DNA from: a virus
Virus record (IMG/VR): IMGVR_UViG_2802429014_000001
Strand: one strand, 5' to 3'
DNA length: 64,000 nucleotides
The first letter of the stretch is position 1, and the number at the start of each line of letters is the position of its first letter. Below are positions 44,200 through 61,668 of the stretch, in pieces. The notes under the pieces were generated by a model. It did not search any database and had not been told where the DNA came from. It saw only the letters and a program-made list of their open reading frames with translations. The position numbers and the translations under genes were made by a program.

Positions 44200-45413
44200 T
44201 CAGGTGCCCCTTTCTGGGCGTGGAGTTCGGCGCTGACGCGCCAGAGGTCTTTGAGGACGGTTTTCGCGATGGCGCGCAAAGCCCTTGCGTGCTGATGTCC
44301 CAGCGATAGAGGCGACCCGGCCAATGCGGGCTTGCCCGATGGGCCACACCGGATGCACTCGGCGGCATGAACCGCGTCGGTGTACTTGATGCGGGTGTCG
44401 TCGTACACCTGGCGATACCGGGTACCGGCAGGCTGTTTGACGCACGACGCTGCGATCAGCCAGGCGCGCTTGCGGGCGTCCTCATTCCAGTTGGAACGTT
44501 GTCCGCGTTGGCGTCTGGGGGCCACCCCGGCAGCGGCGGCTGGTGGGGTGTCGCAGCTGGTGTGGCTGCCGGGGTGGAGAACATGAAGCCCGCAGTACGC
44601 CCACAGCTCAGACACAGTGCGGGGTCGACCGTGCAAGTCATTCCAAAACGGGTCGCGCACCACAGCTAGCAGGCGGGCAGCTTGCTTCTCGCCGACGCCG
44701 GGTGCGTCTTTAACCCACTGCCCCAAAGGGTGTTTGCGCATCGCCCGCTGTAGGTTGAGGATGGCGCGGTGCTCGGCAGCTTTCAGGTCATCGACCAGCG
44801 CCGCCAGCCGAGCCATGTCCGGGTGATCGAGCGTTAACCCGAAACCTCGTGCTACACCGTCCGAGTCGACAACGTCGGCGGGCGTGGTGAGCGCTCGTAG
44901 CCGGTTCTCATTGGCGATGCGTACACGTTCCAGGTCGTCGAGAACATCGGCAGCCATGCCCAGTAGCGGGTCAGCGAGGATGGGTCCGAGGGGGGCGCAT
45001 GAGCAATGGGGGTCGACGTTTTTCTGACCCCCCTCGGAGGTTTGATCACCGACAGCGCCCTGAACTTGGGTATCGAACTTCATTTGGCTGCCGGTGGAGT
45101 TTGATCCAGCCAGGGGGACGGCAGGGTGGGTATCGTTAGCACCATGACCCTGGCTGGAAGTTAGATCACCGACAGCGTTTGCGGCATGGGCGTCGCCCAC
45201 TCTTTGGCTGCCGGTGAAGTTTGGTCCAGCCAGGGCGCCTGTGACTTGGGTGGCGTTTCCGCAATGGCCCTGGCTAGAAGTTGGATCACCGACAACGACG
45301 ATCTTCTGGGTGTCGCTGGACAAATGGCTGTCGGTGAAGTTTGGCGCCCCCGGCGGAGCGTGAATGGGTTCCGTACCAGAGCTGGCCGGGGGCAAGTCGA
45401 TGATGGCGGTCAC
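44196..45413 (-). CDS. repeat-containing protein with an IS110-type transposase C-terminal (Transposase_20/HHH)-like region
   Basis: N-terminus has three ~40-aa tandem repeats (GDxTSSQGHxxN.T...AG.N.TGSQ). C-terminus reads KDAPGVGEKQAARLLAVVRDPFWNDLHGRPRTVSELWAYCGLHV, resembling the IS110 helix-hairpin-helix domain. No DEDD N-terminal domain. Confidence 0.35.
   Translation of the reverse strand: MTAIIDLPPASSGTEPIHAPPGAPNFTDSHLSSDTQKIVVVGDPTSSQGHCGNATQVTGALAGPNFTGSQRVGDAHAANAVGDLTSSQGHGANDTHPAVPLAGSNSTGSQMKFDTQVQGAVGDQTSEGGQKNVDPHCSCAPLGPILADPLLGMAADVLDDLERVRIANENRLRALTTPADVVDSDGVARGFGLTLDHPDMARLAALVDDLKAAEHRAILNLQRAMRKHPLGQWVKDAPGVGEKQAARLLAVVRDPFWNDLHGRPRTVSELWAYCGLHVLHPGSHTSCDTPPAAAAGVAPRRQRGQRSNWNEDARKRAWLIAASCVKQPAGTRYRQVYDDTRIKYTDAVHAAECIRCGPSGKPALAGSPLSLGHQHARALRAIAKTVLKDLWRVSAELHAQKGAPE
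45040..45400. repeat. three tandem copies of a 120-bp coding repeat
   Basis: ggctgccggtgRagtttgRtccagccaggg recurs with starts at 45086 and 45206, and a third, more diverged copy at 45326. Confidence 0.6.
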
Positions 45414-45895
45414 TGGACCGCTCCAGAGGGAAGATCGGACACCTTCGCGGCGCCATGCTCAATGACAGCGGCAAGCAACCGTTCATAGCGTGCGACCTGC
45501 CCCTGAATGCGCTCAATCTCAGCACTGCGCTCGCTGATGCAGAAAAGGAGGTCGTCAGCTGTGCAGTCGCCCAACAGTTTCCAGTGCGATCCGCCGACGT
45601 GGACGCGGGCGGCAAGCATTTCGGCCCACCAGTCGCGGACCGCCGACACCTTCGGCGACACCCGAGGGGCACTGGCAACCGCCTGGGCAAGGGCAGTGTT
45701 TCGCTGCTCCCGCAGCAGGTCACGCACCACCGGCACCAAGGCTTCGGTGTAGAACGCCGACACCTGCTCGTCGGTGGTCAGCTTCTCAACACGTGATGCG
45801 ATTTCACGGGGATCGGCGCACGGCATATCCGTGGCGACCTCGCGGATTAGTCCCCGCAAGGTGGGCGGTTCTGGTAGTTGGGTAGCGTCAGGCAT
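45410..45895 (-). CDS. hypothetical protein
   Basis: First gene after the HTH pair. Confidence 0.3.
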   Translation of the reverse strand: MPDATQLPEPPTLRGLIREVATDMPCADPREIASRVEKLTTDEQVSAFYTEALVPVVRDLLREQRNTALAQAVASAPRVSPKVSAVRDWWAEMLAARVHVGGSHWKLLGDCTADDLLFCISERSAEIERIQGQVARYERLLAAVIEHGAAKVSDLPSGAVQ

Positions 45896-45935
45896 GCCGA
45901 AGGCCTTCCTTGAGGTGGGAATTCGGTTCTCGATG

Positions 45936-45978
45936 GCGCTGACGGCGGGGGACTTTGGCGAGTAGACCGCCGTCAGCG
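45936..45978 (-). terminator. 12-bp perfect inverted repeat hairpin (CGCTGACGGCGG..18 nt..CCGCCGTCAGCG)
   Basis: Intergenic between two minus-strand genes. No T-tract. Confidence 0.25.
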
Positions 45979-46008
45979 TTGGGGGTTATTCAGTTGTGGG
46001 AGTTGGGA

Positions 46009-46362
46009 TTATGAAGCTGCCAGGCGCCGCTTCCGGCGCTCGGCCCATGCGCGTAGCTCGGTGGCATCCCACCGGAGCCGACTGCCGACCCGAGTAGGCG
46101 CAGGAAGGTCATAGAGTCCGCGACGGCTCCAGTCGCGCAATGTCTGCGGGTGGATGTCCAAGATCGTGGCGGCGACCTTGGACGTGACCAGGACGGGCGT
46201 TTGCGCCTCGCGCTGGATGCGGAGCAGGGCGCGGAGCGTTTCGTGGGCGGAGAGAGGAGTGAGACCGGTGTCGGCGATAGTTGTTGCAATGCGGGCCATT
46301 TCGACCGGCGAGCTATCGGCGGTCATGCCCGCCTGGGCGGCGAGTTCCTGAAGGTTCATCAC
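46009..46362 (-). CDS. excisionase/AlpA-like HTH DNA-binding protein
   Basis: ATILDIHPQTLRDWSRRGLYDLP...RWDATELRAW. Confidence 0.4.
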   Translation of the reverse strand: MMNLQELAAQAGMTADSSPVEMARIATTIADTGLTPLSAHETLRALLRIQREAQTPVLVTSKVAATILDIHPQTLRDWSRRGLYDLPAPTRVGSRLRWDATELRAWAERRKRRLAAS

Positions 46363-46643
46363 GCGATGCCCCGTACGCTGGCCAGTCGGGGGCGATAAGT
46401 CGTCGTGATGGTGCCAGGCTCCAGGCCGTAGGCGACCTCAATGCCTGCAAGCAACTCCTTGGATGCGCCCCTGAGCCCGCCCTCAATCGCCGAGAGGGCA
46501 CCGACCGTGTAGCGAATGCCGGTCGCGTCTTCTATTAGATCCGCAAGGCCAGTCAGGGTAAGCCCGGCTAGGTGGCGGAGGGCGCGAATGGGAACGTGGG
46601 GCGGCGTGAGCTGCGCCCGCTGGTGGGTCGGTCTCGGTGGCAT
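46359..46643 (-). CDS. Cro-like HTH regulator (early-side partner of the divergent switch)
   Basis: IRALRHLAGLTLTGLADLI reads as an HTH. Divergent from the 46799 gene. Confidence 0.45.
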   Translation of the reverse strand: MPPRPTHQRAQLTPPHVPIRALRHLAGLTLTGLADLIEDATGIRYTVGALSAIEGGLRGASKELLAGIEVAYGLEPGTITTTYRPRLASVRGIA

Positions 46644-46784
46644 GTCGATAACAGTACGGCTTAATTACGGCATGGTCAAGGCGTGATTAAGGAAAAGATT
46701 CGGCAATGCCTCGATTGGCTTTGACCTGCGCAAATTCCTCCCCGCAGTCATGAAGAGTTGTTATTGAGTTTGCCCAAAGTCTTT

Positions 46785-46798
46785 GCCATAGTTATGGC
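46785..46798. promoter_or_regulatory. 14-bp perfect palindrome GCCATAGTTATGGC (candidate operator)
   Basis: Lies immediately 5' of the start codon at 46799 in the divergent intergenic region. Confidence 0.4.
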
Positions 46799-47713
46799 AT
46801 GAGCGCTAACGCCGATACCGATGCCCTCGCCTCGGCGGTTCGGGCGCGTCGGGCTGGCCTGGGACTAACGCACGATGAAGTGCTTGCGCGCGGAGGCCCC
46901 TCCGGCGTGACGCTTACGAAGATTGAGATGGCGAGGGGGCCCGCACCAAGTGCGGCCACTTTGAAGAAGCTTGACTTGGCGCTCGATTGGGCGCAGGGCA
47001 GCGCTTTGGGTGTACTCAACGGCGGGGAACCCGTTCCGCTGGAGCATTCCGGTCCGCATGATGTCGCGGCTCCCTCGGCTGGCGAGCCCGGTTCAGGCGC
47101 TGAGCATTTGACTGCTATGAGTTCAGTTCTTGCGCAAATGGTCGCTGTGACGGCCGATCTGCTAACCGGCGCGAGCTTGCCGCCAAAGGTGCGCGCGCAG
47201 GTTGAGCGGGCTATCGCCGACTTCGATAAGGCGAACGAACTCCTTGGTCCAATGACGCATGTCCCCGAGGTTGCAGTCGCGTACATGAAAGAGGCCGACA
47301 AATTCGCACAGGTCGCAACCGAAGTGATCCGGTCAAGCTTCCCGCCCAATGTCACCAACCTTGCCGACCGCAGGCCGGTGCCACCGCCGCCAGACATTGA
47401 CGACCTCGATGTCGCCGCGTCCCGGCGCGAAAAGCTATCCGATGGCGAACGCGACGACGAGGACGGGCCGCATGAGTTGTCGCTGTCCGACAAAAAGTCT
47501 CGTCGCAAGATCAAGTACGAGTTCAACTCCAGTGCAGAGGCATACGAGTATGCCCGTGAGTTCCTGATCGCAGTAGGTGAAAAGCCGCACCTGGTTGACG
47601 CTGCCCTCGGCGATGCGGGCCGACACATTGCAGACACCAGCGCAAGGGGGTGGGCCGTCCGCATTCGAAAGGTCTCGGGCAGAGCCGCAGCTAGCCATGA
47701 CGACGACAAGTAG
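46799..47713 (+). CDS. XRE-family HTH repressor (cI position) with a long C-terminal domain
   Basis: The N-terminal region LRRARRAGLGLTHDEVLARGGPSGVTLTKIEMARG is HTH_3-like. 304 aa. Transcribed toward the integrase. Confidence 0.55.
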   Translation: MSANADTDALASAVRARRAGLGLTHDEVLARGGPSGVTLTKIEMARGPAPSAATLKKLDLALDWAQGSALGVLNGGEPVPLEHSGPHDVAAPSAGEPGSGAEHLTAMSSVLAQMVAVTADLLTGASLPPKVRAQVERAIADFDKANELLGPMTHVPEVAVAYMKEADKFAQVATEVIRSSFPPNVTNLADRRPVPPPPDIDDLDVAASRREKLSDGERDDEDGPHELSLSDKKSRRKIKYEFNSSAEAYEYAREFLIAVGEKPHLVDAALGDAGRHIADTSARGWAVRIRKVSGRAAASHDDDK

Positions 47714-47768
47714 ACGGACGACGTGACCAACTTTGGCGAAATAGTGCCGCCACTGACGCAAGTGGTGT

Positions 47769-48251
47769 GTGGTGGCCAATCCCAAGGGTAGGAAGCGTAG
47801 GCCAAGGCGCAGAGTGATTGCGGCCCAATATCTTCCAATCGGTAGAGAGCCCTACAACCCCTGCGAACTGCCCGAAGACCAGGTGCTAAAAGACAAGATA
47901 GTGAGCGTTCTCGGCGTCCCCATTGATGGGTACATGTTCGAACTCGTGTATAGGTACACCCTGTTTCAGGGCCTCTGCGTGGATTGGGCGATCATGATCT
48001 ATGCACTGAAAACGGCAGACGGATTAGACGCCGAACGCCTGCGGGTCGAGCGAATCGACATCTGCCACTCGGAGGTTCACAAGCACACATTCGGTCGGAG
48101 CAGCCCAGCCGATGATGACCTTGGCCACCGCACAGTGATCCAGTCGTTATCCGCAGGTGACGAGGCTATAGTGGATCGCGAGTACGATAAACAGCTGGCG
48201 CTAGTGAGCCGCGAATGGCAGTTGCGAGCAAGGAGGTGGCTCGATGGTTGA
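47769..48251 (+). CDS. hypothetical protein with Arg-rich N-terminus
   Basis: KGRKRRPRRR at the N-terminus. No recognised domain. Overlaps the next ORF. Confidence 0.35.
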   Translation: MVANPKGRKRRPRRRVIAAQYLPIGREPYNPCELPEDQVLKDKIVSVLGVPIDGYMFELVYRYTLFQGLCVDWAIMIYALKTADGLDAERLRVERIDICHSEVHKHTFGRSSPADDDLGHRTVIQSLSAGDEAIVDREYDKQLALVSREWQLRARRWLDG

Positions 48252-48651
48252 CGCGCACACCGTCGCGACGTTCGCTTTCGCCCAGCTGCGCCGCGACCCT
48301 GATTTCGCTAAACGGTTCCCTTGGCTGCGGAACACTGTGGTTTGCATCGAATCGGATCGGGTCTCGGTGGTTATGGACGGCCTGATGAGCCACCATTTTC
48401 CAGAGGGTGGCACAGTCGCCTGCTACTACCCACAGGGTCACCGCTTCATGTTCATTAAGTCCCTGCCCGCGCGGCAATCGATCGAACCGGGCACAGTGCC
48501 AGTTGTCGCCAATGATCCAAAGGGCGAACTCACCATGGGCATGATCATTGATGCCATGTACTCCAAGCACGTCGATTGGGACACCGAGGCCCTGCAAATT
48601 GGGGAGGCTTCGACCCTTGAGGTTGAAAAAAGACTCTCCCTCGCCAAATAA
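48244..48651 (+). CDS. hypothetical protein
   Basis: Translationally coupled to 47769..48251. Confidence 0.35.
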   Translation: MVDAHTVATFAFAQLRRDPDFAKRFPWLRNTVVCIESDRVSVVMDGLMSHHFPEGGTVACYYPQGHRFMFIKSLPARQSIEPGTVPVVANDPKGELTMGMIIDAMYSKHVDWDTEALQIGEASTLEVEKRLSLAK

Positions 48652-48712
48652 CAGGCATGTATTTCCTGGTCAGAAGTCCTTTTGTCGGTGGCCTGTTCTA
48701 GCGTCTCGGTCC

Positions 48713-49141
48713 ATGAAGACGCATCACTGGCATCCATGGCGAACGCTCGCCGAGCACTATCCACACATCGCTGTGTCCTGCGATCACGTCCTGCCCCGGG
48801 GAGTGGCCGGACTGATCAAGGGAAACACCATCTGGCTGTGCAAGAGCCTGACGCAGGCTGAGCGCCGGTCGACCTTGACGCATGAGTTGATCCACGTTGA
48901 CCGAGGCATCGCGCCCGTCATCCACCGCGCCCGCGAAGAGCACTATGTGGACGTGCTGGCGGCACGCCGACTCATCCCACTGCCTGCCCTGCTGCGTGGG
49001 CTGCAATGGACCAACGATGATTACGAACTGGCCGAAGAGCTTTGGACCGACGTTCACACCGTGCGGGTACGACGCCAGACCCTAACCACTGCCGAGCGGG
49101 ACTGGCTCGCTGACCGTGTTGAAGACCCGCAACGCCCATGA
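48713..49141 (+). CDS. ImmA/IrrE-family zinc metallopeptidase
   Basis: Start placed at MKTHHW. HEXXH is HELIH (TLTHELIHVDRG). ~140 aa, typical size. Confidence 0.55.
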   Translation: MKTHHWHPWRTLAEHYPHIAVSCDHVLPRGVAGLIKGNTIWLCKSLTQAERRSTLTHELIHVDRGIAPVIHRAREEHYVDVLAARRLIPLPALLRGLQWTNDDYELAEELWTDVHTVRVRRQTLTTAERDWLADRVEDPQRP

Positions 49142-49335
49142 ACACTGTTGAAGCCCTTGATATGGAACGCATTTGGTGGCCTGCATCCGGCGCCAAGGAT
49201 GAAGCAGTACGCGAGCGATTCGGCCTATCGCCGGTCCGCTATTACCAGAAGTTGAACGCCATTATCGAGACGCCAGAGGCGCTGGCCATCGACGCACAGA
49301 CCGTCAACCGACTGCGACGGATAAGGGGGAGGTAG
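49138..49335 (+). CDS. small conserved actinobacterial protein (DUF3263-like, unverified)
   Basis: 65 aa (ERIWWPASGAKDEAVRERFGLSPVRYYQKLN). ATGA overlap with its neighbours. Confidence 0.3.
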   Translation: MNTVEALDMERIWWPASGAKDEAVRERFGLSPVRYYQKLNAIIETPEALAIDAQTVNRLRRIRGR

Positions 49336-49845
49336 ATGGAACTGGCAGGATTCTTGATACAGGTGTTTGGCGCCCTATTTACGGCGGTTGGACTTCTCAT
49401 CGCCTGGGAACGGGTATCGAATCGGTCGACGCAGTGGCGCAAGGGGATTGGCGATTTCATTAACGGGCTACTTATGCGATCCAAGAAGGGCAGTGGTGAC
49501 ATCGTGATTACCCCACAAGGGGCGGTCATAACCGCCGTGGGGGGCACACCAGAGGTGATAGTGGAGCCCGACAGTCCGGAAAGGCGGCTCAGGCAACTTG
49601 AGGATGAGTCGAAGAGCCTGCAAAAGCGGGTCAGGAAGACCGAGAAAGCCGTCAAGCGTATCGATCAGGCGGTCGATGAAGTCGACAGCACTATCAATGC
49701 TGCGCTAGCCAAACTGGTCAACGACGACAACTTAATCAAGGTGAGTGATATCCGTTTGGCGCTAATAGGTCTCGGAATCTCATTTGTAGGGTTTGTCATT
49801 GAACACGGACCCTTGCTGCAACGAGTCTTCTGCGCGGCCCAGTAA
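49336..49845 (+). CDS. membrane protein (TM, coiled coil, TM) immediately upstream of the integrase
   Basis: N-terminal TM LIQVFGALFTAVGLLIA, a central charged coiled coil, and C-terminal TM LALIGLGISFVGFVI. Confidence 0.45.
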   Translation: MELAGFLIQVFGALFTAVGLLIAWERVSNRSTQWRKGIGDFINGLLMRSKKGSGDIVITPQGAVITAVGGTPEVIVEPDSPERRLRQLEDESKSLQKRVRKTEKAVKRIDQAVDEVDSTINAALAKLVNDDNLIKVSDIRLALIGLGISFVGFVIEHGPLLQRVFCAAQ

Positions 49846-49850
49846 GGGAT

Positions 49851-51179
49851 ATGACCATGCGAGGTAGACCGCCGCGACCTATCGGGGTGACCGGCAATGT
49901 AATCCTGACCGAGCTACGCCCCGGCACGTGGCAGGCCATCGTACGTGTGCGTGATGCCAGTGGTAAGTCACGAAAGGTGCTGAGGGTCAGTCCACCGCGC
50001 ACCGACTCTCGCGGGCGCCCTGTGCCAGACAGGGACGGCGTGCGCGCACGCGACGCGGTGCTGGCAGCCGCCTCCGAGCTTTCGGTATCGGTGCTCGATG
50101 CGGAGCTGTCGACAGAGACCACCATCCGAGCGCTGTATTACGAGCACTACCGGCCGTACCTTGTAGATCAGGGGAGGGCGCCCGCCACCCTTGACCGATA
50201 TGACTTTGAGGCCAAGGGATTTGACTCCGCATTCGGCCATAGGCGTCTCATGGAGGCGCCAACTCCGGTGATGGAGAAGTTCCTGACAACGGTCGCTGAC
50301 ACGCGTGGTGCCGGGGCGGCGAAGTCGTCGCGAACAGTGCTGTCCGGGATGTACAACTACGCGATCCGCATGAGCAATGGCGCGATCACGGTCAACCCTC
50401 TGCGCGAAGTGAAGCTGGCGCGACGCAAGGGCGCCAAGCGTGGCGGTGCCAGCCAGCTCACCGTTGACGAGGTGCGCGACATCCTCATCGCGGTACGGAC
50501 TTCGGACCTGCCATGCCCCCGAATTCTGGCCAAGGCGGAGCGCGAGAGGAGCGTCGGAAGCTACACGCCACCAACGGTTGCCGAGTTCTGCGCGGACGCC
50601 GATATTGTCGACTGGATTGTGATGCTGATTGCCACTAGCCACCGCCGCAGCCAATCGCTTGCAACGACCTGGCCCGAGCTGGACCTGAAAGCCGGTGTCA
50701 TGCGTCCCACCCGGAAGCTGATCCGCGTCAAAGGCAAAGGCTTGGTGCTGGTGCCCATTGAGGACGACACCAAGGGCTCTGACAATGAGATTGCGTTGCC
50801 CCAGTTCGCCATCGATGCTCTCAAGCTTCGGAAGCGGCGACTTGCCGAGCGCCGACTAGTTGACCCGCGTCCGGTATCGGCCGACTACGAAGACTTGGTG
50901 TTCCCGTCCGAGAACTGGACGCCCCGAGACCCGAACAACGTCGCGGCGCAGTGGCGTCGCGTGCGGTCGGCGCTGGGGCTGCCCGCCAGCATCACGGCCC
51001 ACAGCTTCCGCAAGGCCGTGGCCACCATTCTCGATGACGCCGGACTGTCTGCCCGCGTTGCTGCTGACGTGCTTGGGCATGCCGATCCGTCCATGACTCA
51101 GCGCTTCTACATGGCGCGCGGACGGGCGCACAGCGAAGCCGCGACTGCGCTGCACCAGGCCATCGCGGGCGAGTCCTGA
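49851..51179 (+). CDS. int: tyrosine integrase
   Basis: C-terminal AHSFRKAVATILDDAGL...LGHADPSMTQRFYMARG matches the R..HxxR..Y catalytic pattern. 442 aa. Confidence 0.8.
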   Translation: MTMRGRPPRPIGVTGNVILTELRPGTWQAIVRVRDASGKSRKVLRVSPPRTDSRGRPVPDRDGVRARDAVLAAASELSVSVLDAELSTETTIRALYYEHYRPYLVDQGRAPATLDRYDFEAKGFDSAFGHRRLMEAPTPVMEKFLTTVADTRGAGAAKSSRTVLSGMYNYAIRMSNGAITVNPLREVKLARRKGAKRGGASQLTVDEVRDILIAVRTSDLPCPRILAKAERERSVGSYTPPTVAEFCADADIVDWIVMLIATSHRRSQSLATTWPELDLKAGVMRPTRKLIRVKGKGLVLVPIEDDTKGSDNEIALPQFAIDALKLRKRRLAERRLVDPRPVSADYEDLVFPSENWTPRDPNNVAAQWRRVRSALGLPASITAHSFRKAVATILDDAGLSARVAADVLGHADPSMTQRFYMARGRAHSEAATALHQAIAGES

Positions 51180-51204
51180 TGCCGTGGACATCGCCCAAGA
51201 TGGT

Positions 51205-51332
51205 GGACACTAAATGGACACTAATTCGCGTGACGTCACGATTATTCGCAACTACGTTCGACTATCGAAGACTATCCAAAATTTGAAGTATCCGCAGGTA
51301 GTTGCACCTTTTTGAGCAACGCTTGACTATCC
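51205..51332. promoter_or_regulatory. candidate integrase arm-type sites (direct repeats)
   Basis: GGACACTAA appears twice (51205, 51216). GACTATCCA(A/T)AAT appears at 51270 and 51325, plus GACTATC at 51260. Confidence 0.4.
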
Positions 51333-51361
51333 ATAATTATCTCTGCTAGCCCATATTTTTG

Positions 51362-51400
51362 CGATTGTGGGGGTCAGGGGTTCGAGTCCCCTTAGCTCCA
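51362..51400 (+). other. tRNA/tmRNA 3'-end fragment (T-arm plus acceptor 3' strand), i.e. the att core
   Basis: aGGGG-TTCGAGT-CCCCt T-arm followed by TAGCTCC and A. The complementary 5' acceptor strand GGAGCTA is absent upstream, so this is not a complete tRNA. Confidence 0.5.
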
Positions 51401-51441
51401 CTTGACATACCACCCGTTCAGCGGGGGTTTTTCTTTAAATC

Positions 51442-51461
51442 GACTTAACTGCCGTCAACAC
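51442..51461. promoter_or_regulatory. direct repeat CCGTCAACA x2 (candidate arm-type sites of the second integrase)
   Basis: gCCGTCAACAcgCCCGTCAACAtc lies between the tRNA fragment and the second integrase start. Confidence 0.3.
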
Positions 51462-51492
51462 GCCCGTCAACATCGGCGTACGCTCCGCAGGT

Positions 51493-52610
51493 ATGGCCAG
51501 CATCCGCAAGCGTGCGCTCAAGGACGGCACCGAGTATTGGTCGGTGCTGTACCGGCGCAATGGCAAACAGACCAGTACCTCATTCGGTGACCCCGACACC
51601 GCCGTGAAGTTCACCAAGCTCGCCGAGACGGTAGGCATTGAGGCAGCGCTGAGAACCGTGGCTGCAGACGGTGGTTCGTCTAGCGCGATGACCGTCCAGG
51701 AATGGCTGACGCATCACATTGACTTGCTCACGGGGACCGACCAAAACACAGTCACGAAATACCACTCGTACCTGCGCAACGACATCGCCAAGCCGCTGGG
51801 TGCTATCCCGTTGTCGGCACTAGAGCGTGATGACGTTGCGCGGTGGGTGCAGACTATGAAGGCGACGACGACCCGGCGCGGCACTCCACCGAGCGCCAAG
51901 ACGATTCGCAACAAGCTCATGTTCCTCTCCGGTGCTCTCAACGATGCGGTGGCTACAGGACGGCTGGTGGCCAATCCCACCAGCGGCATCAGCCTGCCCC
52001 GTGACGACGACCCACACGAGCCGAGGTTCCTTTCCCGTCCTGAGAGTTCGACACCCTCTATGACACGACCACCGAGCCATGGCGGCCGCTCGTGCGCTTC
52101 CTGGTGGTCAGTGGCTGCCGGTTCAACGAGGCGACGGCGTTGACTCCTGCTGACATCAACACCGATGAGGGCACTGTCCGCATTCGTCAGAGCTGGAAGC
52201 ACGGCACAGGCGGGTACAGGCTGGGCGCCACCAAGAGGGACGGCAGCCGACGCACGATCAACGTCCCGGCTTCGATGCTTGACCTACTGGATCTGTCCGG
52301 GGAATTCGTCTTCCTCAACCGCGACAATGGCCCCGTGCGCATCCATGGCTTCATCCGCCGCGTCTGGGAGCCTGCCGTCCTGCGCTCGGAGCTGGGGCCA
52401 AGGCCTACACCGCACGATCTGCGGCACACGTGCGCATCATGGATGATTGTAGCCGGTGTGCCGTTGCCAGTTATCCAGAAACATCTGGGACACAGCGACA
52501 TCAGGACCACCATCAACACTTATGGTCACCTCGACCGCTCCTCCATGCGGGCTGCCGCAGATGCTCTCGAAAAATGTTGGCTTAGTTTTGGCCTTACCCC
52601 AAACCTATAG
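51493..52610 (+). pseudogene. second tyrosine integrase, disrupted by a +2 frameshift (GAG to GAGAG) at about 52042-52046
   Basis: The N-terminal ORF (to 52143) and the catalytic ORF (from 52092; HDLRHTCASW...GHSDIRTTINTY) are in different frames. Removing AG from cctgagAGttcgac joins DDDPHEPRFLSRPE to FDTLYDTTTEPWRPLVRFLVVSG. Confidence 0.55.
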
Positions 52611-52715
52611 AAATCCACCTCAAGACCTATAGTCGCTCTTAGCACATTTATCGAATGAGCTTGTGCCACAAATATTCTCGACGCATACCCACGCAGGCTG
52701 GCGTATTCTTGACGT

Positions 52716-52955
52716 ATGACCAACTACTCCGACGAGGAAGCCGCTGAGCTTATCGGCTGCTCTGTTCGTTGGTTGGTCGAACAGCTGCGTGCCGGTCGGT
52801 TCCCTGGCTACAAGCCGGGACACAGCTGGCGGATGACTCAGGCAGACGTTGAGGCCGCTATCGAGACCCTGCGCCCCACCAAGAGGGAGTTGGACGCTCC
52901 GCTGGCGCTTGGCTTGACCACGACCTCACGCCGTCGCTTGACGCTTGCCGAGTAG
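52716..52955 (+). CDS. excisionase/MerR-like HTH protein
   Basis: AAELIGCSVRWLVEQLRAGRFPGYKPGHSWRMTQADVEAAIE. Confidence 0.5.
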   Translation: MTNYSDEEAAELIGCSVRWLVEQLRAGRFPGYKPGHSWRMTQADVEAAIETLRPTKRELDAPLALGLTTTSRRRLTLAE

Positions 52956-53059
52956 GTGTGCAGATCTGTCTCCTAGACCCGCAGAGTTTGTCAGACCTTG
53001 ACGGCAGAATTCAGACATAGGCCGCTCGACATCTGCAGGGAGGTAGTGGTGAACGGAAG

Positions 53060-53623
53060 TTGGGGCAAGTCGTGGGGTGGGTAAGCGGTCATCCCAGGCG
53101 TCTTCGGAACGGTCGGACCATATGGGTCCGCACGTATCGCCGCAATTCTGGCGGCGCTTCTAGTGGGGGGCTGAGCGCAGTACTCGCGGTGGTCGGGTTG
53201 ATTGCAGTGCTGGGAATCGGTGGAGTTGGCTTTAGCTCGCTTCTGGGCGGGCTGTCGGCACCTTCTTCGGGTGTGTCTGTCGTCCCGGTTGCTGTGACAG
53301 TTTCTGGCGCCGATCGGTACGGGTTCACCAGCTATCCGGGGGCGCGTTGCGTCGGGCCAAATGAAGCAGTCGTTGTTCAACGCACCACTCGCTCGCGCCT
53401 CGTTGTCTGTGCCGACAGTAGCGGCGCGTTGTACTACCGGGGTGTCCGGATGAAGGACGGCGCCTCGATCCAGGTCAACTACGTGCAGGTGGTGTCACCG
53501 GGATACGACGCGGTCAACTCTGCGACTGGCACCCTCTATGAGGTGCGCCCACGTGGGTTGACGATCCGGGACGGCGGCAAGGTTCTGGACTTCGAGCAGG
53601 CTGTCGAGTACTGGGCGCGTTAG
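53060..53623 (+). CDS. membrane-anchored protein (start uncertain, TTG in the track)
   Basis: TM LSAVLAVVGLIAVLGIGGVGF followed by a Ser/Val-rich extracytoplasmic domain. Confidence 0.35.
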   Translation: MGQVVGWVSGHPRRLRNGRTIWVRTYRRNSGGASSGGLSAVLAVVGLIAVLGIGGVGFSSLLGGLSAPSSGVSVVPVAVTVSGADRYGFTSYPGARCVGPNEAVVVQRTTRSRLVVCADSSGALYYRGVRMKDGASIQVNYVQVVSPGYDAVNSATGTLYEVRPRGLTIRDGGKVLDFEQAVEYWAR

Positions 53624-53627
53624 CGGA

Positions 53628-53854
53628 TCAGCCCTCGCAGGCGACGCCGTCGTTATCTCGGTCCAGTTTTGGCCGGTATCCGGGATCGCCCTTCTTGATG
53701 TTGTATGCGCCGTCGGCGTGCGCTTCCTTGCAGCTACCGTAGGGCGAATCAGCCTGTGTCAGTGATGTCGCGCTGGCACTGAAAGGTGTTGTTACGGAGA
53801 TGATTACCCCCGCGAACAGTGCCCCGGTGATTGCGTGAAAACCGTGATCTTCAT
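53628..53854 (-). pseudogene. Excalibur-domain secreted protein, frame broken by a 1-nt loss in an A4/T4 run (53838-53841), or a sequencing error
   Basis: The open frame encodes signal-peptide-like HAITGALFAGVIISVTTPFSASA then ...YGSCKEAHADGAYNIKKGDPGYRPKLDRDNDGVACEG (DxDxDGxxCE). It has no in-frame ATG/GTG/TTG. ATG AAG ATC ACG sits one frame off, and restoring a fifth T gives MKITVFHAITGALF.... Confidence 0.4.
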
Positions 53855-54011
53855 TGCCCCTGCCTCCCCTTGAACTACGTGTGGTCAGCGGAATCTACGA
53901 CATAGTCAAACTGCTTGCGGATGTTTTTCGTGAGAATGTTTGGCACCGTCCGTACTCCAGTCTCGTGCCTGAATTTGCCACAGTCGATCGAGTACTGATG
54001 CAGACTGTGCA

Positions 54012-54983
54012 GTGATGGTTGAACTGAGGCGTCATGGCAGCGAGGTCGGTTCGGTGTTCGATCTCCTGGGTCACAAGGAGAACGACCTGACTGCGGCGCT
54101 GGGCTTTGCCCTGGCGCGGTGCCCGCAGTTGTGCGCTGTGGTCGCGGCTCGCATCGCGCCTAGGGAAGGTGGCTCAATCCATGAGCCCGCAGTGGCGCTA
54201 GAGGTTCGCGACAACGATGGCCGTACAGACCTTGAACTCCGAATAGGCAAGTCTCTATATATATTTGAGGCCAAGCGTGGGTGGCTGCTGCCGGAAGTCG
54301 ATCAGCTTGCCCGGTACGCCCGACGCATTCAAGGAAATAGCGGACGTGGAGGCCTGGTGACGCTATCGCAGGCGTCGCAAGCACTGGCCGCGCATCGACT
54401 TCCCTCAGAAGTTCACGGCGTCAGTGTCATGCACCTGTCATGGCGTGAAGTCCTGGACGATATCGGCAAGGTCGAGCCTAAATGCCGAGGGCGTGAACGG
54501 GTGTGGTTGGACGAGTTGCGCGCGTACTTGAGAGGAGTCATCCGGATGGTGGACGTGGCAGACAGCTGGGCCTACTGTGTCGTGCTCAGCGACGAGAGAC
54601 CGGCTGGTGGAGACATCAGCTTCAAAGAGTTTGTAAGAGAACAGCATTGCTACTTCCATCCCTACGGTGAAGGCGGGTGGCCGCTTGAACCCCCGAATTT
54701 CATGGCGTTTAGATGGGACGGATGGGTACAGCAGATACATCGTGTCATGGAAGCCGACGTGATCCCGGACCTAGCCGAGCGATACCCCTACATGATCGAC
54801 AACCCCGACGCCCGCCGCCCCCACGCGATTTACTCACTCGGGCCACAGCTGAGGTTCGAGCCACTTCGATGCGGCAGGAACTATCGCGCCCGCCGTATAC
54901 GGGTCCTGCTTGACCAACTCCTCTCTGCCCCAACACTGTATGAAGCCCAAGCTGGAACAGGGTGCTTGGTGAAAAACAACTAG
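54012..54983 (+). CDS. PD-(D/E)xK-like nuclease-domain protein, 323 aa
   Basis: N-terminal DGRTDLELRIGKSLYIFEAKRGW fits a D...ExK core. No other domain recognised. Confidence 0.35.
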   Translation: MMVELRRHGSEVGSVFDLLGHKENDLTAALGFALARCPQLCAVVAARIAPREGGSIHEPAVALEVRDNDGRTDLELRIGKSLYIFEAKRGWLLPEVDQLARYARRIQGNSGRGGLVTLSQASQALAAHRLPSEVHGVSVMHLSWREVLDDIGKVEPKCRGRERVWLDELRAYLRGVIRMVDVADSWAYCVVLSDERPAGGDISFKEFVREQHCYFHPYGEGGWPLEPPNFMAFRWDGWVQQIHRVMEADVIPDLAERYPYMIDNPDARRPHAIYSLGPQLRFEPLRCGRNYRARRIRVLLDQLLSAPTLYEAQAGTGCLVKNN

Positions 54984-54997
54984 GTAGGACCTAGGGC

Positions 54998-55619
54998 CTA
55001 CCGCCGACTCCATGCCGAAAAAGCGGTGCGTATTCGGCTGATCAGTCCCATAGGCGATTCGTCTTCCGGCCCCGGGGTTCTGAACGGATCAGGGAGATCT
55101 CCCGCAGTTCGGTTCAGCTGCTTCAGCTCGTCGGACAGTCCATTGATCGCATCATTGGTGCCCTCCAGGCTAGCCATCGAGACTCCGGGAACGCGAAAAG
55201 TCTTCCGCCAGCCCATACTGAAGACCAGCGAGGCGATTCCCAGGAACACAAGTCCAACGAATGCAAACGCTGAGCCGCTGAAAACCTCATGCCGGTGACC
55301 GAATTGGAGCGCAGACATCCACATATAGAGGCAGACGATCAGGAGAAGCGGTGCGGCGGACCACATGATCACCGGATCGCGACGCTGTCTGCTGTCGGCC
55401 ATAATTCGGGCCTTCAGGCGGATGGCGGCGTACCGACGAAGCACCACGGCCTGGTTGGGTAGGTCTGCCTTTGCGTACTTGTCCGCAAGGTCCAGATCCT
55501 CGCCGAGCGAGCCCCATCCTCGATGACGTGCATTGCCTCGCGCGGCCAACAGCCAGCCAGATAGCAGAGTGGCGAACAGGGTGATCAGCGGCAGGACAAC
55601 CTTTTCAGCGATTTCCATG
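54998..55619 (-). CDS. four-TM membrane protein
   Basis: Start placed at MEIAEKVVLPLITLFATLLSGWLLAA. Four hydrophobic helices and a C-terminal cytoplasmic tail. Confidence 0.45.
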
Positions 55620-55719
55620 ACGGGGAATCTACAGCAAACCTTCAGCTGCCTTCCGGGATATGAATAGCACTGCATTTCTTGGTGGTTGGCAGCCTGGGGA
55701 CGCAGCCGGAAACGTAGGT

Positions 55720-56745
55720 TTAGGTGGCGAACAGTTCTGCCGACCACGCAGTGATGGTGCGCTCGAACCGCGCAGGAACGTAGCATTCTTCCCGCCGCGC
55801 GCCACCGGGTGAGCGGGACGCGGCTTCGTACAGGCACGCTGCGCACTCGACCATGTTGAGTGTGACTGTGAGGGCTTCTGCCAGAAGGTTGAATATCGTG
55901 CCGCCCCCGGCGTATTTCGTAATCCATTTGTACCCGTGAATGAAGCTAGACCCGTACGAGTAGAAGGACCTGGCAGCTGCTTCCAGACCGTTCACGGTGA
56001 TCTCCCCGTCGTCATGAGCCGGAGTGTGATCGTCGATCCATTGCGCGGATTCCCGGACCATCTGGGTGAAACCTGGTGGGGCCGAGTACGTGTACTCCTT
56101 TTTCACTGTTGTCAAGATGTCGTTGTAGTTTTCCCGGTAAGCGGCGTTTTCTGCCAGGATTCGCTGCGGGAATCGTTCGGGGCGACGCTTTTCCTCCCAA
56201 TCGCTGGTTGCGAGAAACCGCTTACGCTGTTCTAGCTGCTCCATCTCTTCCGACATGCATCGGTCCCGCCGGACGTTGCTCGATGGGTCTTTGAGTAACC
56301 AGATGGTCAAGGCGGCGGACTCCATCGCTACACGGCACAGCTGCAACACCTCCGAAAAATGAGGCTCTTGATGTGACCTGCGGCGAGTGATCAGTAGCCC
56401 GGCGGTATGCATGCTCTGAGTGGCGCTCACAGCAGGAAAGAGGGCGTGCTCAGTGACGGGGGCTTCTACTGAAAGAGGCAGTATCAAAGGGTACTTGGCG
56501 GTGAAGGCCTCGTCATCGGCGGCGAGCGCACTATCGGGTGCGCCGGAATGAGGGTGCAGGCCCCACTGGTAGAGGTCGTCGCAGCGCTTTCCGCGCTCGT
56601 CAATGCGCGACAACACGCCATTGTGAAGGAAGTCATACATTGCCTCTTGTAGTTCGTGCTCCGAGGGGTTCGAGTTGGCCACTCGGTCAAGGTTATGGAA
56701 TGACTCTAGTGCGCGGGGCTGGAACCTGTAAGGGAGGAGAAGCAT
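55720..56745 (-). CDS. hypothetical cytoplasmic protein (~341 aa), upstream partner of the 4-TM protein
   Basis: Start placed at MLLLPYRF. No motif recognised. Confidence 0.35.
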   Translation of the reverse strand: MLLLPYRFQPRALESFHNLDRVANSNPSEHELQEAMYDFLHNGVLSRIDERGKRCDDLYQWGLHPHSGAPDSALAADDEAFTAKYPLILPLSVEAPVTEHALFPAVSATQSMHTAGLLITRRRSHQEPHFSEVLQLCRVAMESAALTIWLLKDPSSNVRRDRCMSEEMEQLEQRKRFLATSDWEEKRRPERFPQRILAENAAYRENYNDILTTVKKEYTYSAPPGFTQMVRESAQWIDDHTPAHDDGEITVNGLEAAARSFYSYGSSFIHGYKWITKYAGGGTIFNLLAEALTVTLNMVECAACLYEAASRSPGGARREECYVPARFERTITAWSAELFAT

Positions 56746-56910
56746 CTGCACGGCAGCGCTTTTCTCTCTGCTGGAAGCGTTTGACCATGCTCGGGTTGAC
56801 TTGGAACCTACAGAAGAACTCAAGCTACGTCGTGGGTGCAATGTGTTTCACGCACTTGGCTCTCCTGAATATGTGAGGGCGCCTGCCCTCTGTATCGAGA
56901 GGGACAACCC

Positions 56911-57366
56911 GTGCACACACTTGCCGCGCCTCCAACCGCCCCCACCGAAACTTGGCTTCCCATTCCTGGCCACCCCGTGTATTACGCCTCGGATCGCGGT
57001 CGGATCTGGTCTTCGCGCTCGGCGCGGGTGCTCCGGCCTGATTACTCAAGCCGCTACGGTCGTGTCGACCTCGACGGCAGGACCACCAAGTCGATCCACC
57101 ACCTCGTCCTGGAGGCGTTCGTGGGGCCTCGTCCCGACGGGATGCTTGCCCTTCACCGCAACGATGACCCCCATGACAATATTATTGAAAATCTCTACTG
57201 GGGAACTCTTTCTGATAACCAGCACGATGCCGTAGCAAATGGTCGGCATTACGAGGCCAGGCGCACTCATTGCCCTCATGGGCATGAATACTCGTCCGAG
57301 AACACACAGATTCGGCAGAACAAGCGGTCCTGCAGGACCTGCGCTCGTGAGCGGGCGCGTCGATGA
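56911..57366 (+). CDS. HNH homing-type endonuclease (NUMOD4 + HNH_3)
   Basis: ETWLPIPGHPVYYASDRGRIWS (NUMOD4) and HHLVLEAFVGPRPDGMLALHRNDDPHDNIIENLYWGT (HNH_3). Confidence 0.6.
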   Translation: MHTLAAPPTAPTETWLPIPGHPVYYASDRGRIWSSRSARVLRPDYSSRYGRVDLDGRTTKSIHHLVLEAFVGPRPDGMLALHRNDDPHDNIIENLYWGTLSDNQHDAVANGRHYEARRTHCPHGHEYSSENTQIRQNKRSCRTCARERARR

Positions 57367-57831
57367 TGTGTCGTGAGTGTGGACGGGAAATCGAGCGCCT
57401 GGAATGGGCGTCGTGTGCGTACGACGAAGGGAGTCCCCTCGCTGTTCTGATTTTCGGCGCTGTGCAGCGCTGCGGACCGTACGAGATTGCGCCGACCCCC
57501 TGGCCTGCAGGTGACGACGGTTCAGCCTCTTGGACCGTTTCTTGTGGCTTGTCGGAAATTGGTCGGCATCCATCGATTTCGTCCTGCCGGGGAGCTGCTG
57601 ACTCCACCTACACGTCAGTGAGCACCACCCCGCCGCTCCAATTATTTCTCAGAAGCACTGGTGGAAGGGCCGTTTCCAATAATATGACTTTAAAGGTATT
57701 GCAGTGCAACGACTTTAGCTATCTGAATGGCTCAGGTCGGCGTAGAGTGAACTCAGAAAAAAAGAAGAAACCCCCGAAACCGAGGGTTCTTCAAATGTCC
57801 TCAGCAGACACATCGACCGGGAAGGGGCAAC

Positions 57832-59219
57832 GTGGAGAAGAGTAGCACGAAAGCCCCTGAGGCACCACGGTTCCAAAGCCTGTTCGCGAATCCGATCTTT
57901 GAGCAGGACCACGAACACCTGGCCCTCAATGCGAGCGGCGACCAGATCGAGAAGGTGGCACGGATTCTCGACCAGCAACTCCCTGTAGCCGCCGAAGATC
58001 ACCGGTTGGCCCGAGCAGCCGTCGCCCGATCCCTTGTCGCCGCACACAAGCGCGGGCATCGAACGCGATACTCCCGCTCAAAGACTTGGTATGACGGTCG
58101 TCCTGACCGCTACAAGAGTGCACCAGGCCTGGAATCCCACTGGCAGATCACCCGTTCCATGGATGCGTTGGAGCGCTGGGGATTCTCCGATCAAGTCCGG
58201 GGATATCACCGGCTCAACGGTTCAGGACGACAGACAACAGCCTGGCCTACACCGAAACTGCTTGCGCTGATCGAACATCTGATACCCGCAGGGGAACCGG
58301 CTCACCCTGAGATCTCGGAGGCCATCGTTCTACGGACCGCCAACAGGGACGAAGTGGACTACGAGGACACCGCCGACACTCGCCGCATGCGCAACCAGCT
58401 GGCACGAATCAACCAGGCCACCAAGGAACTCGACATTGTTGACGCAGAAGGTAATCGCGTCAGCGTCCCGCCGTACCGGAGGATTTTCAACAGGAGCTTC
58501 GACCGAGGCGGACGACTCTACGCAGCAGGCCCGAGCTACCAGAACGCCCCCAGGCATACCGTAGGACCCTCAAAATCTGGTTCCGGGGCCAATACGAGGA
58601 GCTGGTCGAGGTTGATTTCGCCAACCTGCACCTGGTGATGGCGTACGAAGAAGTGGGAGCGCCGATTCCGTCAGGGGACCTCTACCGCATCAAAGGCTTT
58701 GGCCGCACCCTGGTCAAGATCGCGGCCAACATCGCGATGAACGCGGAGACGCCGACACGGGCGTTGAGGGCGATCTCCCAGGCCATGTGCGAGGAGCGGT
58801 GTATCCAGTATCGGGAAGCCGGTGACACGCTGACCCTGGCCCGGTGGCTACGTAAGCATCTGATCGCCCTAGCGCTCACCCCAGGCGCCGAAGAGGCTTA
58901 CGTGGACATCAAGGCTGCCCTGGACGAATGTCGCCGCCAGATCGACCTACCGGACGACGACATCGTGATTGACCCAGCTCGTGTGCGAGCGGCCAATAGG
59001 TCCGTGATAACCCTGAGTACCATCACCCAGATCGCCAACCGCATTGGGCCACTCGGCAAGGGGCTCAACCGTGACCGGCTGCGGTACTTGACCAAGACCG
59101 GCAAGGTCCGGCCCTGCGGTGAAGACCCCGACACCGGAACGCAGTTCTTCCGCCTGGGCGATGTCCTGCACGGACACAACGACCGGACGAAGCGCAAGCG
59201 CTCGGGTGGGGCTAGCTAG
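57832..59219 (+). pseudogene. single ~462-aa gene split by a -1 frameshift in a C5 run (58547-58551); C-terminal MerR/excisionase-like HTH
   Basis: Frame 1 (...RGGRLYAAGPSYQNAP) and frame 0 (QAYRRTLKIWFRGQYEELVEVDFANLHLVMAYEE...) are both protein-like across the junction. Adding a sixth C fuses them. The frame-1 tail (RHTVGPSKSGSGANTRSW) is junk. Confidence 0.5.
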
Positions 59220-61629: not shown

Positions 61630-61668
61630 CTTCCCACCACCCTCTGACAGTCCACGGAAGTCCGCTCG

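Follow-up and report, generated by a model that had tools for sequence, protein, structure and literature searches.

In M. abscessus, the tandem prophages prophiT36-2a and prophiT36-2b have been described at attB-2, and it was proposed that they originated from Int-mediated recombination of an incoming attP with the junction of a resident element (Amarh et al., 2023, PMC9934374). The frequency of tandem prophages in this species was explicitly left open in that study. The tRNA-Ala gene MAB_t5041c constitutes attB-10 and is the site at which MabD prophages insert (Dedrick et al., 2021, PMC8092301, Table S1). Cluster MabD is defined by nucleotide similarity over most of the genome together with integration at tRNA-Ala, either at attB-10 or at attB-3 (Dedrick et al., 2021, PMC8092301). 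The 64,000-nucleotide stretch analyzed here (the window) contains a further case. Its region from 51180 to 52955 is the right-hand attachment junction of an M. abscessus prophage located in a tRNA-Ala gene beside an older, decayed remnant (element 2).

Positions 1-51401 of the window constitute most of a cluster-MabD-like prophage of ~56.6 kb. The prophage body (1..51365, no strand assigned) shows 96-97% identity to prophiGD12-2 and prophiGD05-1, and prophiGD12-2 covers 98% of positions 1-25000 at 96.5% identity, which is the similarity expected for cluster MabD. With these two prophages (PMC8092301) the window prophage shares virion and lysis genes that are 96-97% identical at the nucleotide level, the MAB_t5041c target, the layout of the P arm and a polymorphic toxin cassette at the far end. 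An intact tyrosine integrase gene, int1 (49851..51179, + strand; Pfam Phage_integrase, 1.1e-14), precedes the junction, and its protein shows 94-97% amino acid identity to the integrases of prophiGD05-1 and prophiGD12-2. The window does not contain the left 5.2 kb of the prophage, where the intact tRNA-Ala and the P' arm are located. The left prophage junction was therefore taken from an assembly (L139) which is 100% identical to positions 1-11381 of the window.

The core is found at 51366..51401 (+ strand) and consists of the displaced 3' 36 nt of tRNA-Ala(GGC), which serve as the common core at the prophage junction and also mark the left junction of element 2. No mismatch separates this fragment from tRNA positions 39-73 plus C of the intact tRNA genes in three other assemblies (L004, L133, and L139). 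It extends from the 3' strand of the anticodon stem through the variable loop and the T arm to the acceptor 3' strand and the discriminator A plus C. It also matches the attB-10 core given in Table S1 of PMC8092301. An earlier note on this DNA had described a 39-nt 3' end of a tRNA or tmRNA lacking the 5' half. Such a 3' end is present and the 5' half is absent, but the fragment is 36 nt long and belongs to tRNA-Ala(GGC), not to tmRNA. ARAGORN detected no tRNA in the window, and Rfam searches at the gathering threshold gave no match in the window, a relaxed search yielding only a partial tmRNA/tRNA-like 3' match. The tmRNA match of the fragment reached 17.8 bits compared to a gathering score of 47, and the tmRNA core of M. 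abscessus differs from the fragment (CGGGTTCAATTCCCGGCAGCTCCAC). An origin from tmRNA (ssrA) was rejected on the identity to positions 39-73 of tRNA-Ala(GGC), which includes a tRNA variable loop.

At the opposite end of the prophage, ~5.2 kb upstream of the window, an intact tRNA-Ala(GGC) with the core was recovered from L139. With a 3' fragment at one prophage end and the complete tRNA with the core at the other, the proposed att core at a tRNA target is established. The flank search suggested earlier was successful in this respect, the intact tRNA and the core lying outside the window; it did not yield a second core copy belonging to the remnant. Further copies of the core, the native terminator and the arm repeats were sought within the window and none were found. 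A search of genome contigs with a 32-nt core returned no M. abscessus locus among the 120 matches listed; this search was too unspecific because the 3' end of tRNA-Ala is conserved across Actinobacteria. The same search showed int2-like integrase fragments at three or more tRNA-Ala-bearing loci of other mycobacteria.

Alignment to genomes lacking the prophage, as had been proposed, defined the junctions and revealed three occupancy states, in agreement with the suggestion of two stacked elements. An empty site without insertion is present in L133 and consists of the tRNA, the native terminator and a gene for a 346-aa acyltransferase. In L004 and L006 element 2 is present alone, the intact tRNA being followed by sequence identical to the window from 51402 onward (one mismatch in 11.5 kb). 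Prophage plus element 2, as in the window, is found in L003 and L005, the latter being 100% identical over 8.7 kb. A seemingly different left context of int2 in L007 turned out to be a scaffold gap of Ns. The MabD attP normally matches the empty site over ~75 bp, comprising the tRNA 3' end and the native terminator, but its match to the occupied site is limited to the 36 nt of the tRNA. Therefore, we infer that strand exchange took place within those 36 nt. Consistent with this, the integrase-proximal junction of the window and the target have 36 bp in common, in contrast to the published MabD core of ~75 bp, and the native terminator at this junction has been replaced by the resident remnant.

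The P arm between int1 and the core contains short repeats, and those listed in the earlier note (TGGACACTAA twice and GACTATC three times, as well as CCGTCAACA twice beyond the core) are all located where it had placed them. The putative arm-type pair TGGACACTAA-A-TGGACACTAA (51204..51224, + strand) has a spacing of 11 bp, and its copies (51204-51213 and 51215-51224) are the sole exact matches to GGACACTAA in the 64-kb window. A 27-nt block containing the pair is identical in the other arm of the prophage (L139:3976-4002). In prophiGD05-1 a GTCATCACTAA pair takes the same position in both arms, the corresponding repeat of prophiGD12-2 is GGGACACTAA, and the differences between the integrases of prophiGD05-1 and the window prophage are concentrated in the N-terminal ~50 residues. 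Because the pair recurs in the other arm and its variants co-vary with the Int1 N-terminus among relatives, the comparison supports the view that the TGGACACTAA pair is an arm-type site of Int1, as the earlier note had suggested for these direct repeats.

Closer to the core, three GACTATC(C) direct repeats and a block AGTATCCGCAGGTA (51260..51337, + strand) are conserved in position in six related P arms. The repeats are GACTATC at 51260, GACTATCCAAAAT at 51270-51282 and GACTATCCATAAT at 51325-51337, and the block is located at 51288-51301. Position 5 of the motif is either A or G, uniformly across all three copies within a phage; this concerted change is documented by ~2-3 independent lineages, as the four P arms of the A type are close relatives of one another. 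The repeats are candidate sites for an accessory protein (RDF or bending factor) or additional Int sites. Binding of Int, RDF or a host bending factor to these repeats is suggested by position, repetition and co-variation. The attP of mycobacteriophage L5 reportedly contains tandem arm-type pairs (P1/P2 and P4/P5) with Xis sites between arm and core. L5 and the window prophage both encode a tyrosine integrase and have a core that overlaps the 3' end of a tRNA gene. In either phage each arm contains paired sites of 10-11 bp (putative ones in the window prophage) at a distance of one helical turn, with extra short repeats between pair and core. They differ in their sequence motifs, which are unrelated, and in the target, which is tRNA-Gly for L5 and tRNA-Ala here.

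Element 2 starts at 51402, and the sequence departs from that of the empty site immediately past CTCCAC. Its first nucleotides (51402..51434, + strand) comprise a terminator-like hairpin CCCGTTCAGCGGG plus a T run (51413-51434), are conserved in M. chelonae, and probably represent an element-borne replacement of the region downstream of the native tRNA; the TTGACATACCAC following the tRNA may be purely element-borne or may imitate the native allele. Next are two copies of CCGTCAACA separated by three nucleotides (51452..51472, + strand; copies at 51452-51460 and 51464-51472), which have no other exact copies in the window and are conserved in M. chelonae. A CCGTCAACA pair ~50 bp from the core also adjoins a 51%-identical integrase at a tmRNA site (L160, L162, and L168), and we infer that the pair functions as arm-type sites of Int2-family integrases.

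The second integrase gene, int2 (51493..52610, + strand), contains two indels relative to the intact M. chelonae gene with which it was aligned. As noted earlier, this tyrosine integrase is split by an extra AG, resulting in two open reading frames (51493-52143, 216 aa, and 52092-52610, 172 aa). The 2-bp insertion lies within 52041-52046 (CCTGAGAG), the site reading CGTCCTGAGAGTTC compared to CGCCC--AGAGTTC in the M. chelonae homologue, and once the two bases are removed the protein aligns seamlessly with the intact homologue (P0001, 363 aa, 92%). A second lesion, which the earlier note had missed, is the loss of 1 bp in an A6 run (A5 at 52570-52574), changing the C-terminus from EKMLA* to EKCWLSFGLTPNL*. 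Both lesions are present in all M. abscessus copies examined (L003-L006). Int2 would nevertheless be functional if the GAGAG were a sequencing or assembly error, or if the frames were joined by programmed ribosomal frameshifting: the two frames overlap, the downstream one is -1 relative to the upstream one, as in -1 frameshifting, and the C-terminal frame retains the catalytic residues R, HxxR, H, and Y. GAGAG is not a read error, however, because no fewer than four independent assemblies contain it, and the M. chelonae gene, which is 92% identical, lacks the 2 bp and is open throughout in one frame. In addition, the -1 frame opens only at 52044, around which no X XXY YYZ slippery heptamer was seen, and the second indel alters the C-terminus. 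Since element 2 has no right attachment site, even an active integrase would be without a partner site. We therefore regard a functional Int2 as extremely unlikely. The int2 gene is a pseudogene, its catalytic residues and core-binding domain not being part of one continuous polypeptide. Int1 and Int2 are just remotely related, indicating two independent systems.

The xis2 gene (52716..52955, + strand) begins 105 bp downstream of int2 and is intact, encoding a 79-aa HTH protein (Pfam HTH_17, 1e-9). The excisionase reported at this place was recovered by TIGR01764 (34.6 bits, cut-off 28.8) and by PHROG 1840 ('excisionase', E = 9e-24), and the HTH profile and the place beside the integrase agree with membership of Xis2 in the excisionase family, as a putative recombination directionality factor. 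The exact Xis2 protein is encoded in 76 blocks of the assembly collection. The rest of element 2 within the window (52956..64000, no strand assigned) shows patchy M. chelonae homology and comprises hypothetical cargo or early genes, DUF7620 (63381-63596) and a phage holin (63596-64000; PF23778, 2e-28). An open reading frame at the end of the window (63418-63951) is probably no real gene, and a look-up gave no record for it. Element 2 has a total length of ~12.7 kb, counted from 51402, and ends ~144 bp past the end of the window; only from approximately position 64145 in window numbering (L008:10765 = L133:12107) is the sequence homologous to the empty site again. It lacks a virion module, the right attachment site and ~690 bp of host DNA, the deletion at its right end reaching into the host acyltransferase gene. 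No core copy was found downstream within 10 kb beyond the window, nor a right-hand core within 22 kb.

The closest relative of element 2 is an M. chelonae prophage with an Int2-type integrase (GCA_035967955.1 and GCA_041644855.1; L131 and L132). The two share the junction sequence, the CCGTCAACA pair, the integrase (92% amino acid identity) and xis, and at tRNA-Ala(GGC) the M. chelonae prophage, too, is stacked behind another element. Patchy homology of 77-87% extends over its pre-terminase region. The M. chelonae integrase is uninterrupted and its prophage continues into terminase and portal genes, whereas the M. abscessus copy jumps to the holin instead and lacks these genes as well as the right end. 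These comparisons also bear on whether element 2 could be an alternative native allele downstream of tRNA-Ala in one M. abscessus lineage, for which the lack of a right-hand direct repeat and its near-invariance among carrier strains could be cited. It starts exactly at the tRNA end with integrase, excisionase and arm repeats, though, and encodes a phage holin and PHROG-matching genes. The M. chelonae element most closely related to it belongs to a complete prophage at the same tRNA. Moreover, when contigs were read for the flanking MFS gene, the most frequent arrangement was one without element 2, in which the acyltransferase gene truncated by the element is intact. We attach next to no probability to a native allele and regard element 2 as a phage remnant, in a state of decay as the earlier note had proposed. 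The remnant is immobile because int2 is frameshifted and the right attachment site and the virion module have been lost.

Since many assemblies contain identical int2 lesions, whether or not the MabD prophage is present, the frameshift was inherited and the remnant was there first. Very probably, an older element 2 occupied tRNA-Ala(GGC) at attB-10 and decayed, after which a MabD-like phage integrated into the same tRNA. The older temperate phage would have entered the tRNA 3' end via Int2, bringing in a new tRNA 3' end and terminator, with the CCGTCAACA pair, int2, and xis2 behind them. It would then have decayed in place, int2 gaining the +2 and -1 frameshifts and the virion-structure module being deleted. 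A further deletion would have taken away both the right attachment site of the element and the native terminator, and truncated the adjacent acyltransferase gene at its 3' end. The cluster-MabD-like phage would later have entered the same, still functional tRNA, giving the order intact tRNA, phage-borne terminator, P' arm, prophage of ~56.6 kb, int1, P arm, 36-nt tRNA end and remnant. [quoted passage not shown] This reverse order is very unlikely, since at least 13 of the 24 contigs read contain element 2 beside the intact tRNA without the prophage, with the same two int2 lesions and one mismatch in 11.5 kb, and a late arrival is impossible for an element whose integrase is dead and whose right attachment site is missing. 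Furthermore, distinct MabD-like variants (L003 vs. L005, 95-96% identical) adjoin the same remnant, which points to repeated, later acquisitions of prophages.

The remnant is almost invariant across many M. abscessus isolates, xis2 is intact, and ~9 kb of its genes are unannotated; in PADLOC and Pfam searches, no cargo gene was assigned to a defence system or a function, the sole exceptions being the holin and a weak match to DUF5677. The remnant also reshapes attB-10, as incoming MabD phages match their target over the 36-nt tRNA segment only. It could be a domesticated island which modulates phage integration or excision at this hotspot, for instance by cross-talk of xis2, or which carries an undescribed defence or fitness function, but we consider this unlikely. 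Given the restricted match, the MabD crossover and those core-type sites that are essential would lie within the tRNA segment, which is useful for the design of attB-10 integration vectors and for calling prophage boundaries. The 12.7-kb remnant is widespread and unannotated, and automated tools could merge it mistakenly with the adjacent prophage.

The junction in the window is a clear but ordinary new instance, as tandem prophages in M. abscessus were already described, and it leaves the current understanding of site-specific recombination unchanged. It represents the second well-resolved case of stacked elements in this species, at attB-10 here and at attB-2 earlier. As in prophiT36-2a/2b, two different phage-derived elements are arranged head-to-tail at one tRNA attB with a central hybrid junction. 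In contrast to that pair, the two integrases are unrelated here, the second element is a non-excisable remnant instead of an inducible prophage, and there is no integration-dependent immunity.

All motifs named in the earlier note were found at the junction by reading of 49800-53600 and a repeat search, and its observation and interpretation both proved essentially correct. Downstream of int1 (49851-51179), the intact tyrosine integrase gene, lie an arm-type candidate pair TGGACACTAA (51204-51213 and 51215-51224, 11-bp spacing), GACTATC-type direct repeats (GACTATC at 51260, GACTATCCAAAAT at 51270-51282 and GACTATCCATAAT at 51325-51337), a tRNA-like T-arm with acceptor 3' strand (51370-51400) and a CCGTCAACA pair (51452-51460 and 51464-51472). 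The 9-mers GGACACTAA and CCGTCAACA have no further exact copies in the 64-kb window. An ORF of 216 aa (51493-52143) with weak matches to the integrase N-terminal and central domains follows; it overlaps an ORF of 172 aa (52092-52610) with a strong Phage_integrase catalytic-domain match (1.3e-23). The excisionase gene xis2 (52716-52955) encodes a 79-aa HTH_17 protein.

ARAGORN identified no tRNA or tmRNA in the whole window and Rfam gave no match in it at gathering thresholds; the sole match of a relaxed Rfam scan was a partial tmRNA (17.8 bits) covering the T-arm and acceptor part. The fragment had been described as the 3' end of a tRNA or tmRNA. Its sequence matches without mismatch the tRNA-Ala(GGC) called in related assemblies (positions 39-73, plus C), which upholds the tRNA and rules out a tmRNA origin; the tmRNA likeness arises because the acceptor is of the G3:U70 type (TAGCTCC). 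The window is 96-97% identical over 1-25000 to the M. abscessus cluster MabD prophages prophiGD12-2 and prophiGD05-1, and ~92% identical to them in the int1 region. MabD phages sit at attB-10, the 3' end of tRNA-Ala MAB_t5041c (Dedrick et al., 2021, PMC8092301). The published common core corresponds to TGTGGGGGTCAGGGGTTCGAGTCCCCTTAGCTCCACCATAATCCCAGG...TTTTTGTCTCTG (~75 bp; PMC8092301), and the window fragment is its first 36 nt.

Window position 1 matches about position 47947 of prophiGD12-2 (54,460 bp), so the left end of the prophage lies outside the window. An intact tRNA and the other core copy, expected by the earlier note, were sought in the flanks. Lookup with the metalloprotease-inhibitor protein of the window recovered a locus (L139) that is 100% identical to window 1-11381 and has an intact tRNA-Ala(GGC) at the opposite prophage end, in the order host MFS gene, tRNA, phage-borne terminator copy (CAATAATCCCAGGTCAGACGGCCTGGGATTTTTTGTCTCTGGGAC), GTGGACACTAAATGGACACTAATTCGC and a WXG/GH-E polymorphic toxin/Imm33 cassette. 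This layout places the left junction near window coordinate -5243 and gives a prophage of ~56.6 kb. Prophage cargo between the lysis and toxin cassettes (204-1381) consists of a zinc metallopeptidase (HEIGHALGLIHG; 5' end beyond the window) and an annotated inhibitor/lipoprotein. Upstream of int1 (48548-49335), an ORF of 197 aa carrying HExxH (LTHELIHVDRG) precedes a DUF3263 gene (PF11662, 2.9e-24), and the two may be a protease/regulator pair of the lysogeny module; the prophiGD05-1 annotation lists their counterparts as hypothetical and HTH proteins, respectively.

Directly after CTCCAC (51401) the window departs from native downstream sequence and continues into element 2, with a terminator-like hairpin, the CCGTCAACA pair, the split integrase gene int2 and xis2 in that order. 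Within the assembly collection, 76 index blocks contain the exact xis2 protein, and occupancy states were read in the 24 longest contigs carrying it. About 13 have host genes, an intact tRNA-Ala(GGC) and element 2 without a prophage (e.g., L004, L006), in about 10 a MabD-like prophage separates the tRNA from element 2, the arrangement of the window (e.g., L003, L005), and one is a scaffold gap (L007). Over 11,553 bp, element 2 of L003 and L004 shows a single mismatch to the window copy. An empty site, found via the flanking MFS protein (L133), consists of the tRNA, the native terminator, a 346-aa acyltransferase, a peptidase and WhiB. Comparison with genomes lacking the prophage thus yielded both empty and element-2-only sites, and the proposal of two elements stacked at one target is borne out at tRNA-Ala(GGC), where element 2 occurs alone and together with the prophage.

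Conceptual repair of int2 by removal of 52045-52046 gives a 371-aa product. This product is closest to an intact M. chelonae integrase of 363 aa (P0001, 92% identity), and the two align without a break over the repair point (FLSRPEFDTL). DNA alignment to this intact gene confirmed the suspected extra 2 bp as an insertion (CGTCCTGAGAGTTCGAC in M. abscessus vs. CGCCC--AGAGTTCGAC in M. chelonae). It also revealed a lesion that the earlier note had missed, the loss of one base from a run of A (CTCG-AAAAATG, 52570-52574), which turns the C-terminus EKMLA (stop) into EKCWLSFGLTPNL (stop). Both lesions are present in L004 and, by gene calls and sequence, in L003-L006; because they are common to these loci they are inherited mutations, and read error as the origin of the GAGAG insertion or of the A-run loss is ruled out. 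Programmed frameshifting is unlikely, since the gene of the close homologue is not split, the int2 frameshift lacks a slippery heptamer and the element has no partner site. Judged from these alignments, int2 is a pseudogene with two lesions.

Decay of the second element, also proposed earlier, extends beyond int2. In M. chelonae (L131, L132) an intact int2-xis2 pair is followed by an HNH gene, early genes, terminase and portal. The window shows 77-87% homology to the M. chelonae prophage over 51403-53100, 58786-59228 and 60424-62511, and the counterpart of the last block directly precedes terminase. After this block the window jumps to DUF7620 and a phage holin (63381-64000) where M. chelonae has terminase, and therefore the virion module has been deleted. 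Homology to the empty site returns only at L133:12107 (L008:10765, ~window coordinate 64145). At the right end ~690 bp are gone, comprising any right-hand core, the native terminator and ~394 bp of the acyltransferase 3' end; this gene is called as 253 aa in the remnant-bearing locus vs. 346 aa at the empty site. No core or terminator copy was found within 10 kb beyond the window. On this gene content, element 2 is a grounded prophage remnant.

The host Acyl_transf_3 gene lost its 3' end together with the right end of the element and is fused to element-derived sequence (L008:10650-11411, ~30 bp beyond the window end), with a possible effect on the function of this gene. On the minus strand of element 2, two neighbouring hypothetical genes (61213-61701 and 61726-62586) resemble tandem paralogues with common WSIHLP.PYS.AD and MDL..K motifs; their proteins gave no match to Pfam, PHROG or PADLOC, and their homologues precede terminase in the M. 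chelonae prophage. The holin/membrane-protein block (62863-63945) shares 82-83% identity with the right-hand lysis region of two unrelated prophages, prophiT36-2a (MabN) and prophiGD53-3, a likeness indicative of modules having been exchanged between M. abscessus prophages.

The remnant is older than the MabD-like prophage, because its integrase is dead, it has no right attachment site and it occurs alone with the same lesions. Prophages beside the same remnant vary (L003, 95-96%, and L005, 100% identical to the prophage of the window), and different MabD variants beside one remnant imply that later acquisition happened more than once. The incoming attP and the occupied target have only 36 nt in common, the left junction bears the terminator of the phage and the right junction bears the flank of the remnant, from which we infer that strand exchange took place within the tRNA segment. 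Int1 resembles Int2 only remotely (BLASTP E = 0.009), so two independent integrase lineages converge on one tRNA.

A 27-nt arm block is present in identical copies in the P arm (the int1 side) and the opposite arm of the prophage. P arms were aligned from the window, prophiGD05-1, prophiGD12-2, prophiGD17-1, M. chelonae L131 and M. abscessus L003. The tandem 10-11-mer pair holds a constant position in all six with a phage-dependent sequence (TGGACACTAA, GTCATCACTAA or GGGACACTAA), and the variant pair of prophiGD05-1 recurs in its other arm. Arm-binding domains of integrases are located in the N-terminal ~50 residues. Window Int1 and the prophiGD05-1 integrase differ at 26 of 440 positions, 15 of which fall within the first 50 residues, and the M. 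chelonae integrase combines an N-terminus nearly as in window Int1 with a nearly identical arm repeat. This co-variation supports assignment of the tandem pair as putative arm-type sites.

Across the aligned P arms, each of the three GACTATC copies keeps its position. At motif position 5, four phages have A in every copy, and prophiGD17-1 and M. chelonae have G in every copy, which suggests that a single sequence-specific protein binds all three, with few independent lineages behind this pattern. By analogy with the Xis sites of phage L5, this protein could be the recombination directionality factor. The block AGTATCCGCAGGTA is invariant. The first two GACTATC copies are enclosed by an imperfect inverted repeat of 13 nt (51248-51260/51293-51305, 85% complementary). 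Two copies of the 10-mer TCCGCAGGTA are present, one within this invariant block of the MabD P arm (51291-51300) and one directly before the int2 start codon (51484-51493), possibly by chance.

IMG/VR was scanned for the tandem CCGTCAACA pair. Apart from coding repeats, which were irrelevant, the matches were three isolate-derived prophages, L160 (2338), L162 (1104) and L168 (1104), with CCGTCAACA-N3-CCGTCAACA ~50 bp 3' of the tmRNA gene end. Their core CGGGTTCAATTCCCGGCAGCTCCAC is identical to the published MabM attB-11 core, and the adjoining integrase is 51% identical to Int2. The same arm motif beside a different core would be expected if the conserved N-terminal domain reads CCGTCAACA as a putative arm site.

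In the M. abscessus/chelonae group, tRNA-Ala(GGC) has at least five types of occupant, several in tandem combinations: the MabD-like prophage, a MabL-like prophage (L134/L136; integrase of 372 aa, RecET, junction matching the published MabL core), an ICE-like element (L135; Replic_Relax, T4SS-DNA_transf, resolvase), the element 2 remnant (L004) and an 8-kb AAA_25 element (L132). The MabL-like and ICE-like occupants were found, like the empty site, via the flanking MFS protein. M. chelonae also stacks elements at this tRNA, with the intact int2 relative preceded by a MabD-like prophage (L131) or the AAA_25 element (L132). A 54-bp direct repeat flanks the latter (L132:1700-1830 and 9840-9960) and reaches beyond the tRNA end by 13 bp (CTTGACATACCAC), where the sequence is one otherwise known from the element 2 junction; either element 2 was the first resident there too, or the extension is native M. 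chelonae downstream sequence.

The gain over earlier work is modest: at least five types of occupant at one hotspot, natural bounds on the MabD crossover region, and a widespread remnant not described before. In M. abscessus, two prophages in tandem at a tRNA attB are already known from prophiT36-2a/2b (attB-2), for which an incoming attP recombining with a resident-prophage junction was proposed; the authors considered this arrangement unusual and left open how prevalent it is (PMC9934374). The present tandem is well supported as a further case of this already described phenomenon in M. abscessus.
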